DNA of 64,000 nt from Candidatus Marinacidobacterales bacterium (GCA_965237955.1 OZ250169.1:5024001-5088000); one strand, 5' to 3'; numbered from the stretch's first letter, positions 25,199-31,695 are shown. Numbers and translations are program-made. The notes: generated from the sequence alone by a model not told the origin.

Positions 25199-26948
25199 GT
25201 GATGGGAGCCGTTCGCAGCTCCGGGGGCCGCGCCGTGCGCGCCACGGTCCTCATGGTGGTGCTCTACGCCTTGGCGCACCCGCTCGCGAACACCGCGACG
25301 GCTCAGTCGGGTTGTTTCATCCAAACTCCCGTCGGTGCCGGCGATAACGAGGCACTTGCCGTTGCGCTCCAGGCCGACGGCAAGATCGTTGTCGCTGGAT
25401 ACAGCTTCAACGGCGTGGATGAGGATTTCACGGTCATCCGCTACAACGTTGACCTTAGCCTAGACACGTCGTTCGGTGGTACCGGGATCGTGGTGACGCC
25501 TATCGGTGTAGGAAACGATCGCGCCCGGGCTGTCGCGATCCAGTCGGACGGGAAAATCGTCGCTGCCGGCTCCGCCTTCAACGGAACCGACGACGACTTC
25601 GCCGTCGCTCGCTACAATCCGGACGGGAGCCTGGATGCCTCTTTCGGCACGGGTGGAGTGTCCACCCAATCCATTGGCGCCCAAGACCAAGCACACGGCG
25701 TCGCGATCCAGAGCGACGGCAGGATTGTCGTCGCCGGGCGCGCCTTCATGACCGACGACGACTTCGCCGCCATCCGTTTGAACACCAACGGAACTCTCGA
25801 CACGTCTTTCGACGTCGACGGCATCGTGACGACCTCTATTGGACCTGCGTGGGATATCGGGCGTACCGTTGCGATCCAACTCGATGGCAAGATCGTCGTC
25901 GGTGGCTACTTTTGGAATCTCGTCGACTTGGATCTCGCCCTCGCGCGCTACAACCCAGACGGGAGCCTGGATACGTCGTTCGACGGCGATGGCATCGTCA
26001 CCACATCCTTCAGTACCCGGGACGAAACCGCGACCGCGCTCGCGATCCAGTCAGACGGCGAAATCCTCCTGACCGGAGCCCAACCGACAACGACTGGATC
26101 CTCGTGCGTTACGACCTGGACGGAAGCCTCGACACTTCGTTCGACGGCGACGGATTCGTAACCACCGCGATCGGAGGTGGAAGCGATTTGGCAAACGCCA
26201 TTGTCGTGCAACCGAACGACGAGATCGTGGTCGCTGGACACAGCGACAACCTCACCAACTTCGATATCGCCGTAGGGCGCTACAAGATCAACGGGAGTCT
26301 CGATGCAACGTTCGGCACCGGCGGCATCGTGACGACACCTCTGCTCTCCGGGGACGACCGCGGTGCCGGGGTCGCCCTCGAGGCCGATGGACGGATTGTC
26401 GTCGTGGGGTACACGGACGACGCCGATCGAGATCACGCTCTGGTTCGCTACGAAAAAGACGGCAGTCTAGCCTGTGGGCAAATAAGCCTTCATCCAACCG
26501 GGAACGGCTCGATCAACACCTTTACGATTGTCAGTGGCTGTGCTCCGGACAACTGGGACTGCGTCAACGATCAGCCGGGAAACGCTGGCAGCGGTCCGGC
26601 CGTCGCGAACGACGGGCTCACGAGCTATCTCGAAGACGGTGACGGCGATACCAACCGGGAGATGTTCGCCTTGGACGACGGCACCGTTCCGCTCGGCGCC
26701 ACGATTGTCGAGCTCGAGATCCGCGCCCAAGTCGGGAACCCTGGCGCTCCGAGTCCGACGCTTGGCCTCAGCTATCAGAGAATCGGCTGGGATGGAGCTC
26801 CCGTCGATAGCTCTCCGTTCGGCGTCGGTGTCACTTGCTGTTCGGAGTCGGTCACGTGGACTGTCAGCGGGATCAGCTGGAGCACTGCCGAGCTGGACGC
26901 ACTCGAGATAGGCCTCGTGCACGTCTCCGGTGGTCAGTTACAGGTCAG
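25199..26948 (+). pseudogene. Secreted delta-60 repeat beta-propeller protein, frameshifted and truncated by IS110
   Basis: About seven repeats of Q.DGKIVVAG...RYN.DGSLD.SF; frameshift near 26080; cut at GGTCAG 26943-26948. Confidence 0.85.
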
Positions 26949-27200
26949 CTACGCCCTCGGCCGGAGGCCGGGCCTATCAAGTAGGAAACTACCAAAGCTG
27001 GTAGAAAGGTTGTCGGTGAAGGCTCCGGCAGCGAGCCCCGTACTGTCATTGGTGCATGATGCCCCAGGGTCAGCTTGGGTCCGAGCCGGCTCCCTATCAT
27101 TGGCGAGGCTTCCAACGAAAGCACTCCCCACGGTCAGAATCCATTCGATCGCCATCTCGGGCCGGAGCCTTCGCTCACAAAATACACTTGAGGTGAGCGA
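26949..27200 (+). ncRNA. Candidate bridge RNA in the IS110 left non-coding end (copy 1)
   Basis: Structured 252-bp leader; contains GGGTCAG (27067-27073) and CGGTCAG (27131-27137). Confidence 0.6.
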
Positions 27201-27614
27201 ATGAACAAACGAAAGAAGAGCAAAGCGGCGAAGCGTCTCTCACGGAATTCCCTGCCGTCGATACGACCGATGGTAGCGGGCATCGATCTCGGGAGTCGAG
27301 AGCATTGGGTCTGCGGTCCGCAGCTAGCTGATGGTCGGCCGAACGTGCGGGTGTTTTCCACGACAACGCCGGCGCTGGTTGAGCTTGCGGATTGGCTTAT
27401 CGAGCAAGGTGTGGAGTCGGTGGCGATGGAAAGCACCCACGTCTATTGGATTCCGGTTTATGAGTTGCTCGAATCCCGTGGTATCGAGGTCGTTCTTGTC
27501 AACGCTCGGCAGCTGAAGAACGTTCCGGGTCGCAAAACCGATATGCAAGATTGTCAATGGCTGCAGACGTTACACAGCTGCGGACTTCTGCGTGGCTCGT
27601 TTCGCCCGGGGGAG

Positions 27615-29059
27615 GGAGGTGCCCCCACCATAGTTGAAGGTTCGAGGTGGTGGCGGCTCCTGACACATGGTTTACCCGACTTTGGCGTGCTTGTCGAGCG
27701 CTTGATTCTCAGTGACCTCCGCTAACTTCGCTTCGAGGATCGGTAGCGATTGGTATCCAATGATACGACGGAAATTTTTCTCCGTGGCGAGCAGAGCCGA
27801 AGCGGCCCATCTCAGAACCATCTTGCCATTGCGCCAGCGGGTGACGCGACGGGTACGACCTCGCGCACCGCTGAAGCACGACTCGATGATGTTCGTCGAT
27901 CCAAGGCAGCGTTTCAGAGATGCGGGGAGGTCGAGCTCGTTGATGGTGAACATCTCGTCGAGCCCCTCCCGGATGCTCTCCGCCGCCGAGGGGTAGTCGT
28001 CCTCGAGCCACTTCGCCTGTTGCTCCAACCGCGCTTTGCCCTTCTTTGCTGGGAGCTGCCAGGCCGAACGCAGGCTCGCTTGCACTTGCGGCTTCAGCTC
28101 CTGCGGCAGATAACCGAGCACATTGCGCTCCTTGTGCTTCCTGCAACGCTGGACCTTGTTGTGGGTACCGAACACAGCGTCGACGGCGACCCGTAGCGCC
28201 TTGGAGCCATCGATCACGAACAGCCGACACCGCTCTGGGCTCAGGCCTCGTTCGACCAGGTCCTCCAGCAGCGCCTTGCACACTATCTGGTTCTCCGATG
28301 CTCCATCCCGAAGCCCCAGAACATGCTTGTATCCCTCTGTATCTACGCCGATTGCCGCCAGCGCGTGGTGCTCGCCGAAGCGAATCCCGTCCAGGTACAC
28401 GACCGCGATCTCCAGCTCGTCCAGCGGACGCTCCATCAGCCCCTGCAACTGCTCCGCGCTTGCTTCCACGAACTCACGGCTCACCTCGCTCTTGCTAACC
28501 CCTACCGTCTCCGCCATCTCGGGAAGAACCGACGCGTACTTGCGCGTCGACACACCCAGCATCAGGATTTCCCAGATGCGTTGGCTCAGCCGAGACGAGT
28601 TGTTCACCGCTTCGTAGGCAGGAATCGCAACCTCCCCTCCCTCTGCCTTTCCCTTACGCCGCAGACGTGGCCGGCTCACTCTCAACTTCCGCTCCGCAAG
28701 GCTTACTACGCCACCCTGCCGGCCGTGCCAGCGAACATCGCTACCCTTCTTCCCCGGGTGTTTCTCCCCAGCCACACTTTGGGCTGACAGATCCAAGACC
28801 GCTTCGATCGTCGCTCGGCCAGCAACGTCGATCACTTCGTCGATCGCTATCTCGGTTCGCTCAATCGCATCCAAGAACGGCAACAGAGCTTGCCCCTTCG
28901 AGCTCAGTATCTCTCGAAGCTTCTTCCTGTTCTTCGCATCGATGATTTGGTGATTTGACATCGTGGTGGCTCCTTTCTTTTTCCTTCACAGCCGGATTCT
29001 ATCGAACCCGGCCTTAGGAGCCGCCACTCCTAACCTTCAACTATCTCAGGGGCATCTCC
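27615..29059 (-). mobile_element. IS256-family insertion sequence
   Basis: About 45-bp imperfect IRs (GGAGGTGCCCC / GGGGCATCTCC), 8-bp TSD CGGGGGAG at 27607-27614 and 29060-29067. Confidence 0.92.
27672..28961 (-). CDS. IS256 (Mutator-type) transposase
   Basis: GVSTRK, VYLDGI, VIDGSKAL, QRCRKHKERN, STNIIES. Confidence 0.92.
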   Translation of the reverse strand: MSNHQIIDAKNRKKLREILSSKGQALLPFLDAIERTEIAIDEVIDVAGRATIEAVLDLSAQSVAGEKHPGKKGSDVRWHGRQGGVVSLAERKLRVSRPRLRRKGKAEGGEVAIPAYEAVNNSSRLSQRIWEILMLGVSTRKYASVLPEMAETVGVSKSEVSREFVEASAEQLQGLMERPLDELEIAVVYLDGIRFGEHHALAAIGVDTEGYKHVLGLRDGASENQIVCKALLEDLVERGLSPERCRLFVIDGSKALRVAVDAVFGTHNKVQRCRKHKERNVLGYLPQELKPQVQASLRSAWQLPAKKGKARLEQQAKWLEDDYPSAAESIREGLDEMFTINELDLPASLKRCLGSTNIIESCFSGARGRTRRVTRWRNGKMVLRWAASALLATEKNFRRIIGYQSLPILEAKLAEVTENQALDKHAKVG

Positions 29060-30049
29060 CGGGGGAGTCGATTTGTCGATTACGCTCGATGCACCGGCAG
29101 CGTCAAGAACTAATCGAGCATCGGGACCAAGCCGTCCAATGGATGCAGAAGGCTCTGGACCAGATGAACGTGCAAGTCCACCGTGCGGTGACCGACATTA
29201 CCGGTAAGACCGGAATGCTCATCGTTCGTGCCATCGTTTCTGGCGAACGTGACCCGATGAAGCTCGCCGAGTTTCGAGATCATCGATGCAAGAAAAGCGT
29301 AGACGAAATCGCAGAGCATCTCACCGGCACTTGGCGTGACGAGCATCTTTTCAATCTCGCATCGGCGCTGCGCCTTTACGATGTGCTACAAGCCGAAATC
29401 GAACTCTACGACCAGCGTCTATCCGTGAAGTGGTCATCGAGCTTCAGCCGACCGAGCGCAGACACGACAGTGTGCCCGCTCATCCGAACCCGAACAAGCA
29501 AAGCGCCATGCGGCGCCGCGGCGAGCAGGAACAGCGAACCGAACTGTGGCGTTTTGCTGGATGCGATCTCACCCGCATCGACGGCATCAGTCCCACCACC
29601 GCCGCCATCATCCTCACCGAGATCGGATGCGACCTCTCCGATTTTCCCAGCGAAAAACACTTCGTCTCATGGCTACGCCTCGTTCCACGTCGCCCCATCT
29701 CGGGTGGAAAGCTACTCTACAAACGCCCCAATGGCACCGGCTCCAACCGTATCGCCGGTGCCTTACGCATGGCTGCATTGTCACTCAACCGTTCGAAGAC
29801 CGCACTTGGTGCTTACTATCGCCGCATCGCCCGACGTAAAGACGCTAAAACCGCGATCTTTGCCACCGCAAGAAAGCTCGCTCAGCTCGTCTTCCGCATG
29901 CTCAAATATGGTCACGAATACACAGACATCGGTGCATCTGCCTTCGAGGAGCGCTTTCGCCGAAACCACATCAACGGCTTGCGAAAGGCAGCCGAAAAGC
30001 TCGGCTTTACACTCACTCCCGAGGCTGCTGCAAAGTAGTTTCGGGTCAG

Positions 30050-30301
30050 CTACGCCCCCGGCCGGAGGCCGGGCCTATCAAGTAGGAAACTACCAAAGCT
30101 GGTAGAAAGGTTGTCGGTGAAGGCTCCGGCAGCGAGCCCCGTACTGTCATTGGTGCATGATGCCCCAGGGTCAGCTTGGGTCCGAGCCGGCTCCCTATCA
30201 TTGGCGAGGCTTCCAACGAAAGCACTCCCCACGGTCAGAATCCATTCGATCGCCATCTCGGGCCGGAGCCTTCGCTCACAAAATACACTTGAGGTGAGCG
30301 A
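30050..30301 (+). ncRNA. Candidate bridge RNA in the IS110 left non-coding end (copy 2)
   Basis: Perfect 12-bp stem GAAGGCTCCGGC 30119-30130 / GCCGGAGCCTTC 30262-30273 enclosing two TCATTGG...CCCA.GGTCAG modules. Confidence 0.62.
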
Positions 30302-31684
30302 ATGAACAAACGAAGGAAGAGCAAAGCGGCGAAGCGTCTCTCACGGAATTCCCTGCCGTCGATACGACCGATGGTAGCGGGCATCGATCTCGGGAGTCGA
30401 GAGCATTGGGTCTGCGGTCCGCAGCTAGCTGATGGTCGGCCGAACGTGCGGGTGTTTTCCACGACAACGCCGGCGCTGGTTGAGCTTGCGGATTGGCTTA
30501 TCGAGCAAGGTGTGGAGTCGGTGGCGATGGAAAGCACCCACGTCTATTGGATTCCGGTTTATGAGTTGCTCGAATCCCGTGGTATCGAGGTCGTTCTTGT
30601 CAACGCTCGGCAGCTGAAGAACGTTCCGGGTCGCAAAACCGATATGCAAGATTGTCAATGGCTGCAGACGTTACACAGCTGCGGACTTCTGCGTGGCTCG
30701 TTTCGCCCGGGGGAGTCGATTTGCCGATTACGCTCGATGCACCGGCAGCGTCAAGAACTAATCGAGCATCGGGGCCAAGCCGTCCAATGGATGCAGAAGG
30801 CTCTGGACCAGATGAACGTGCAAGTCCACCGTGCGGTGACCGACATTACCGGTAAGACCGGAATGCTCATCGTTCGTGCCATCGTTTCTGGCGAACGTGA
30901 CCCGATGAAGCTCGCCGAGTTTCGAGATCATCGATGCAAGAAAAGCGTAGACGAAATCGCAGAGCATCTCACCGGCACTTGGCGTGACGAGCATCTTTTC
31001 AATCTCGCATCGGCGCTGCGCCTTTACGATGTGCTACAAGCCGAAATCGAACTCTACGACCAGCGTATCCGTGAAGTGGTCATCGAGCTTCAGCCGACCG
31101 AGCGCAGACACGACAGTGTGCCCGCTCATCCGAACCCGAACAAGCAAAGCGCCATGCGGCGCCGCGGCGAGCAGGAACAGCGAACCGAACTGTGGCGTTT
31201 TGCTGGATGCGATCTCACCCGCATCGACGGCATCAGCCCCGATACCGCCGCGATCCTACTCACCGAGGTCGGGTTCGACCTCTCTGCCTTCCCCAGTGAA
31301 AATCACTTTGTCTCGTGGCTCCGTCTTGCGCCGCGCCGCCCCATCTCGGGTGGAAAGCTACTCTACAAACGCCCCAATGGCACCGGCTCCAACCGTATCG
31401 CCGGTGCCTTACGCATGGCTGCATTGTCACTCAACCGTTCGAAGACCGCACTTGGTGCTTACTATCGCCGCATCGCCCGACGTAAAGACGCTAAAACCGC
31501 GATCTTTGCCACCGCAAGAAAGCTCGCTCAGCTCGTCTTCCGCATGCTCAAATATGGTCACGAATACACAGACATCGGTGCATCTGCCTTCGAGGAGCGC
31601 TTTCGCCGAAACCACATCAACGGCTTGCGAAAGGCAGCCGAAAAGCTCGGCTTTACACTCACTCCCGAGGCTGCTGCAAAGTAG
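30302..31684 (+). CDS. IS110 DEDD recombinase/transposase
   Basis: GIDLG, MESTHVYW, KTDMQD, and ISGGK (catalytic Ser region). Confidence 0.95.
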   Translation: MNKRRKSKAAKRLSRNSLPSIRPMVAGIDLGSREHWVCGPQLADGRPNVRVFSTTTPALVELADWLIEQGVESVAMESTHVYWIPVYELLESRGIEVVLVNARQLKNVPGRKTDMQDCQWLQTLHSCGLLRGSFRPGESICRLRSMHRQRQELIEHRGQAVQWMQKALDQMNVQVHRAVTDITGKTGMLIVRAIVSGERDPMKLAEFRDHRCKKSVDEIAEHLTGTWRDEHLFNLASALRLYDVLQAEIELYDQRIREVVIELQPTERRHDSVPAHPNPNKQSAMRRRGEQEQRTELWRFAGCDLTRIDGISPDTAAILLTEVGFDLSAFPSENHFVSWLRLAPRRPISGGKLLYKRPNGTGSNRIAGALRMAALSLNRSKTALGAYYRRIARRKDAKTAIFATARKLAQLVFRMLKYGHEYTDIGASAFEERFRRNHINGLRKAAEKLGFTLTPEAAAK

Positions 31685-31695
31685 TTTCCGGTCAG

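Follow-up and report, generated by a model that had tools for sequence, protein, structure and literature searches.

The stretch of DNA analysed here (64,000 nucleotides (nt) of Candidatus Marinacidobacterales bacterium, GCA_965237955.1 OZ250169.1:5024001-5088000, called below the window and numbered from its first letter) contains two copies of an IS110 insertion sequence arranged head-to-tail. Copy 2 has an intact recombinase gene, while copy 1 is inactive, being disabled by an IS256-family element and by a 2-base pair (bp) frameshift near position 29418. Seven copies of the element were found in the genome, all seven with AG at both ends. The hexanucleotide GGTCAG, which an earlier note on this DNA had placed at the three junction ends of the tandem, is indeed present there (26943-26948, 30044-30049 and 31690-31695), and the same sequence was registered at both ends of each of the seven copies. 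The features described below, considered together with those of relatives, point to an IS110 bridge recombinase of an ISPpu9-like clade, which probably recognises the element's junction in the form of a single strand folded back on itself and exchanges this one strand at AG.

The recombinase of copy 2 scores above the cut-offs for PF01548, PF02371 and NF033542 and combines a DEDD RuvC-like domain with a Tnp domain bearing the catalytic serine; D29, D114, D117 and S349 are conserved. Its predicted structure (predicted local distance difference test, pLDDT, 90) is best matched by IS621 and ISCro4, with which the element shares the fold, the catalytic residues and a two-loop left-end RNA (PMC11208160, PMC11208158; PDB 8wt6, 9t56), as well as a core that reads CT on one of the strands, AG at the end of the 3' guides and a handshake letter. 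It differs from IS621 in having a protein about 130 amino acids (aa) longer and an asymmetric inverted repeat of 6-9 bp. A helical insert of ~55 aa at the coiled-coil tip (30812-30985), absent from IS621, contains several invariant residues; a single-sequence model of this inserted domain was of low confidence and was not used.

The predicted bridge RNA and its guides

The leader upstream of the gene folds better than its shuffled versions (z -2.9, 1/200) and gave no match in an Rfam search. All structural elements that the earlier note had listed were found in it: the perfect 12-bp closing stem (30119-30130/30262-30273), the motifs GGGTCAG (30168-30174) and CGGTCAG (30232-30238), and a predicted 8-bp hairpin over the ribosome-binding site (30272-30279/30294-30301). 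The consensus fold of 31 leaders sets both motifs in internal loops rather than in stems and, together with guide covariation, predicts a structured upstream RNA with a target and a donor internal loop, as in bridge RNAs.

Relatives (cited by locus number, L) were collected from plasmids as well as from genomes and metagenomes. Of the first 154 loci, 82 could be parsed with a scaffold pattern, and these yielded 71 insertions with both ends, belonging to 34 types. A later, more distant set included 26 loci at 43-53% identity, 18 of them parsed, with 13 guides; two misparsed rows and L029 of the first set are among them. Parsing by regular expression missed 72/154 loci of the first set and 8/26 of the later one, several of which were read by eye only. 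Over 23 distinct guide pairs the 3' strand of loop 1 matches the left junction of its own element at 152/161 positions and the 3' strand of loop 2 matches the right end at 160/161, while the crossed-over comparison gave 89/161 each. These figures are partly circular, since the junctions were placed by the best guide match; multi-copy elements (7, 9 and 10 insertions) yield identical boundaries independently. Based on this covariation, the assignment made in the earlier note, with GGGTCAG of loop 1 as the target guide and CGGTCAG of loop 2 as the donor guide, is near certain.

The crossover was assigned to AG because the empty site of 1b, a 78% identical relative residing in the same genome, is a perfect 22-bp palindrome solely when joined at this dinucleotide; AG is thus the shared core typical of IS110 bridge recombinases. 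In 21 of 24 types (null 12.3; 4/20000) the letter directly 3' of the target guide is identical to base 1 of the left end, so that handshake letter 1 matches the incoming strand as the handshake guide of IS621 does (PMC11208158); letter 2 was not significant. The left target guide departs from this scheme. Instead of pairing 8-9 nt beside the core it pairs ~1 nt on average, and in the plain register position +1 of the right flank alone stands clearly above chance (33/57, null 15.4); a few members have longer right-flank matches, some of them shifted by one base. In L008, L021, L029 and L058 only such a shift gives 4-7 paired nt between this guide and the right flank, as though an extra G remained at the right junction. 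Distal pairing of the left target guide was also sought, and no offset was outstanding among the 130 tested (best z 2.9). Two other readings were rejected, namely a bridge RNA encoded antisense and a core placed centrally in the 14-nt motif: it is the sense strand that agrees with the guides and the handshake, and joining at AG is what closes the palindromic empty site. The 5' hairpin loop GAAACTA is not favoured as a third RNA guide, because the equivalent stretch of ISPpu9 is not transcribed.

A highly probable distal donor site

For IS621, the 5' strand of the donor loop is described as pairing with the opposite strand, directly beside the core (PMC11208160). No such core-adjacent left donor site was found here: for 13 distinct guides its match was 25/78 against a null of 29.3. 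A site of the same sense as the guide, lying 24-31 nt inside the left end, was matched in 68/78 (null 40.5±3.6, 0/20000 shuffles). This distal site was placed independently of the guide, by an inverted-repeat anchor with a gap of 4-6 nt allowed in test and null alike. The later set gave 50/78 for the distal site (null 35.0, 0/20000) and 24/78 for the adjacent one (null 21.5). On about eight branches of a 42-protein tree guide and distal site leave the common word together, for instance in the sisters L020 and L062, and the pattern was followed by eye into the 38-40% group (L024, L027, L028, L100, L110). It is highly probable that the donor 5' guide reads the distal site. The element differs from IS621 in that its left donor guide matches away from the core, on the strand that the right guide also matches, and in that the core, relative to the gene, is read on the other strand. 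Neither this site nor the copying of the right-end inverted repeat by targets was noticed in the earlier note.

The geometry around the distal site was compared in 31 types, with L048, L029 and copy 1 excluded. Their left ends share the succession AG, 8 nt, hairpin, 6 nt, C plus one base, 4-6 nt and inverted repeat, and their right ends the succession inverted repeat, 5 nt and AG. The register of the stem has its maximum at 6 nt/8 nt with a pairing of 0.89, while the spacer ranges from 21 to 29 nt. Stem positions 3-5 of the hairpin are paired in 35/42 cases of the later set (null 19.9), and left and right inverted repeats covary (99/120, null 80.6, 0/5000), most clearly in L070. At the level of sequence and covariation, the agreement of guides with their sites, the constant spacing, the hairpin and the inverted repeat are established; the two donor guides match sites on one DNA strand, ~25 nt apart. 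The corresponding coordinates in the window are collected in Table 1.

Table 1. Features of the tandem IS110 locus, in window coordinates
Feature	Position	Strand	Remarks
Left flank of copy 1	26934..26948	+	8-nt mimic of right-end inverted repeat, target 7-mer, AG core
IS110 copy 1	26949..30049	+	inactive; G-variant right end, mosaic patch
IS256-family element within copy 1 recombinase gene	27614..29060	-	41-bp imperfect inverted repeats; 6-8 bp duplication, register ambiguous
Copy 1/copy 2 junction	30035..30049	+	right-end inverted repeat 30035-30042, 5 nt, AG core 30048-30049
First 8 nt of left end	30050..30057	+	outside left donor guide reading; base 1 = target-loop handshake letter
G+C-rich DNA hairpin	30057..30073	.	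putative U-turn of folded donor strand; stem positions 3-5 covary
Distal donor site CCTATC-A	30074..30080	+	sequence shared with left donor guide, same sense
Left-end inverted repeat GAAACTAC	30086..30093	+	complementary to right-end repeat
Predicted bridge RNA core	30119..30273	+	12-bp closing stem, target loop and donor loop
Target loop 5' strand	30141..30149	+	left target guide position
Target loop 3' guide GGGTCAG with handshake letters	30168..30176	+	
Donor loop 5' guide CCCTATC-A	30193..30200	+	
Donor loop 3' guide CGGTCAG	30232..30238	+	
Predicted 8-bp hairpin covering ribosome-binding site	30272..30301	+	overlaps closing stem
Intact 460-aa IS110 recombinase	30302..31684	+	D29, E78, D114, D117; S349; coiled-coil helical insert ~55 aa; C-terminal helix
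Right end of copy 2	31681..31695	+	inverted repeat GTAGTTTC, 5 nt, AG core

A probable folded donor strand and its alternatives

Since both donor guides have top-strand sense, both would pair with the bottom strand, which must then fold back. Such folding would bring the guides into an antiparallel arrangement like that of the IS621 donor, while the RNA-opposed strand would fold into the 8-bp inverted repeat on one side and the hairpin on the other, leaving between them an open bubble that would resemble the RNA-opened 14-bp donor window of IS621. The inverted repeat would start just beyond position 14, where the wedge of IS621 is inserted, and the bases that the guide would displace are free to vary and non-complementary. 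The AG core would correspond to CT of IS621 on the folded strand, the one which IS621 cuts first. One-strand copy-out may then produce a circle in which the two donor arms are already present, and the insertion would be resolved upon replication. This cycle is plausible given the single-strand circles reported for IS621 and the one-strand insertion reported for CazIS110-1. Pathways described for IS110 elements comprise single-strand circles, one-strand insertion, insertion into donor-like sites and tandem duplications (10.64898/2026.08.31.748434, 10.1101/2025.10.25.684509, 10.64898/2026.08.14.744561). The difference is that in the available text of the accounts of half-match and one-strand pathways the donor is still a contiguous duplex site and a fold-back donor does not appear. 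For ISPpu10 a preprint reports that a target stem-loop adds specificity.

In ISPpu9 of Pseudomonas putida KT2440 the core is AG and the ends are formed by an A box of 43 nt and a B box of 16 nt, both of which MITEPpu9 retains in full (PMC12288879). The element shares with it the IS110 group, the upstream leader, the AG core, a left-box inverted repeat starting 8 nt after AG and a 16-nt right box; the A and B boxes fit the end frame given above, which places the ends within the ISPpu9-like clade. L293 and L294, with end boxes identical or almost identical to those of ISPpu9, encode proteins 43-44% identical to the recombinase of the window, and their guides, read by eye, match the box at 5/7 positions. 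The ISPpu9 transcript starts ~84 nt inside the element (PMC8450116), downstream of the A box, and so this box acts as DNA; circle formation required the bases directly after AG and those beside the right AG (PMC12288879). ISPpu9 differs in targeting repetitive extragenic palindromic (REP) sequences rather than its own end, and in the accessible part of its description the bridge guides are not mapped and the distal A box is not tied by the authors to a guide. A scan of viral sequences for ISPpu9 ends gave 91 short matches, and none of the 80 with flanks examined had an IS110 gene or a full box. Membership in the IS1111 group, where the non-coding region lies downstream and inverted repeats of 11-13 bp are situated 7 and 3 bp from the ends (PMC11187229), does not suit the element, as its leader is upstream and the distances of its repeats from the core are 5 nt and ~36 nt. 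The chances are roughly even that a broad, largely unstudied IS110 branch (~38-100% identity, including ISPpu9) reads a folded single-stranded donor by means of bridge RNA, and that its self-like members complete the fold with the target flank and reuse IS ends as landing sites. A full-text literature search, which left figures, bioRxiv supplements and most subscription papers outside reach, gave no description of a fold-back donor or a distal donor guide.

Several observations weigh against the folded donor. A mutant of ISPpu9 with altered A-box hairpin still gave correct minicircles in end-point polymerase chain reaction (PMC12288879), where the authors left a role of the hairpin in efficiency or integration possible, and excision of IS621 has been described as a two-strand process (PMC13626964). 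No strand preference could be derived from folding energy (bottom strand lower in 13 and top in 18 of 32), and of the non-canonical pairs in the inverted repeat eight speak for the top strand and two for the bottom. The distal match is only 3-5/6 in the AA-core and ISPpu9-like branches, the distal site of ISPpu9 type sits in a competing local palindrome, L068 does not fit the pattern, and the permutation tests ignore kinship. Circularisation of the hairpin mutant and folding without strand bias would be expected if the left donor guide read the distal site in a duplex, the site being a separate half-site bound by a second protomer or RNA, with at most local melting or a small cruciform and no need of a folded single-stranded circle; the report that excision of IS621 is driven by donor half-sites alone favours the same. 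Such a half-site is difficult to reconcile with the 6 nt/8 nt register, which stays fixed while a spacer of 21-29 nt alters the helical phase of a duplex, and with the covariation of the hairpin arms; besides, a loop of ~25 bp is, from general knowledge, too short for a duplex to bend back. We hold the duplex reading to be unlikely.

Targets, tandems and relatives

The earlier note treated the locus as a standard IS621-type bridge element, the near-identical guides of which build arrays. The guides do differ by one base, two of the seven insertions are at IS110 right ends, and of the nine best-matching free genomic sites six are the element's own right ends. Other self-like or mutually targeting members exist as well (L004, L132; L026/L030). 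Part of the claim thus stood: the right end rebuilds the target and is itself used. The G variant proved unnecessary, since the letter in question is A, C, A, G, T, G and G over the seven left junctions, and copy B is inserted at a C-variant end. At odds with the standard scheme are the missing adjacent left-donor match, which IS621 requires, the fact that none of the six C-variant own right ends is occupied, and the absence here of any array longer than two. Tandems also arise without guide likeness, as in L142, L167, L168 and in ISPpu9 of strain B4, where the junction bears the donor word although the target guide differs; one preprint counted 437 cases of tandem IS110 duplication, and another reports insertion into donor half-sites. 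Self-targeting as a driver of arrays is thus doubtful, and the standard IS621-type model as a whole improbable. Least credible is an RNA-level switch or decoy in which the donor 5' guide and the similar left-end site pair with one transcript partner: in the element and its closest kin the distal site can pair with a downstream stretch of the RNA strand, but over the clade there is no covarying partner (58/84, null 55.9), and transcription of ISPpu9 begins ~84 nt inside, beyond the A box.

What makes the element distinctive, on the evidence of the compared sequences, is the combination of self-like guides with targets that reproduce the inverted repeat as well. It is unusual because only 3 of the 23 guide pairs differ by no more than one letter. 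Five non-IS targets match TAGTTTC at 5-6/7 positions, vs 39/3700 genomic GGTCAG sites. Flanks resembling the inverted repeat are commoner where the guides are alike (mean 5.2/8 for 8 types vs 3.2 for 13 types, p 0.027, kinship ignored) and are not general across types. A target guide one letter away from the donor guide, together with inverted-repeat-like targets, means that each insertion would leave its right end as a new target, and this renewal may permit occasional tandems. In L026, L030 and L033 two IS110 types with reciprocal guides sit each at the other's right end, in an alternating tandem.

The copy 1/copy 2 junction mimics a donor circle junction. The history of this tandem is not simple, as judged from its outer flanks and from copy 1 itself. 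The right flank is preceded elsewhere in the genome by a 1b-type palindrome, the left flank consists of a truncated beta-propeller gene, and within copy 1 a ~125-bp patch (about 29591-29717) is 95% identical to 1b; the two outer flanks probably do not derive from a single original site. The cut gene, a DUF5122 beta-propeller gene in two frames, occupies 25199-26948 and has its 3' end truncated by IS110. An uninterrupted version of it was sought in 40 relatives, and no match crossed the junction. Among contigs of public runs none bridged the tandem junction and no circle joints were found; contigs of one RNA run left the leader uncovered. An identical 2-bp insertion near codon 256 is present in five of the seven copies (window 29418-29419; genome 4911170, 5140892, 6427922 and 6775374) and also in public runs X3 and X5. 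The shared insertion may mean that defective copies spread in trans, or that the gene is split or recoded; no slippery run was evident.

Apart from 1b the genome holds a family of 51% identity with ~14 loci and a distant one. The former (541345-8083150) has the same end architecture, and five of its ten full left flanks share one sequence, which presumably resembles an IS256-type end. Four clustered copies of the third, distant family lie at 5882722-5888972, two of them joined directly with the left end shortened. Elements of 1b type (L001, L038-L041, L118 and genome positions 4904923, 4887481, 5224167 and 5497826) target palindromes of 14-22 bp, which precede a repeated sequence family. An AA-core branch with an A6-7 target guide is inserted at A-runs (L143, L168, L183, L184, L186, L187, L286, L287); we take these runs to resemble IS3-family frameshift sites, and an annotated IS3 element lies beside L187. 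Judging by eye, L046, L049, L073 and L077 are inserted in an apparent tRNA 3' end, and their left end begins with the displaced bases.

Bridge recombinases are being developed as genome-editing tools on the assumption of a contiguous duplex donor and target. One bridge-RNA survey rebuilds donors from ~25 nt on each side of the core, and such a window omits most of the distal donor site; a donor guide reaching across a hairpin, if true, would alter guide prediction. The folded donor also bears on whether IS110 circles are single- or double-stranded and gives a reading of the hitherto unexplained 43-nt A box of ISPpu9. Integron attC sites likewise serve as folded single-strand substrates in which one strand is exchanged and replication resolves the product; they differ in being processed by a tyrosine recombinase, an unrelated protein that uses no RNA guide. 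If true, the reading proposed here would make these elements an RNA-programmed counterpart to integron cassette insertion, and such enzymes could place single-stranded DNA cargo at programmable sites.

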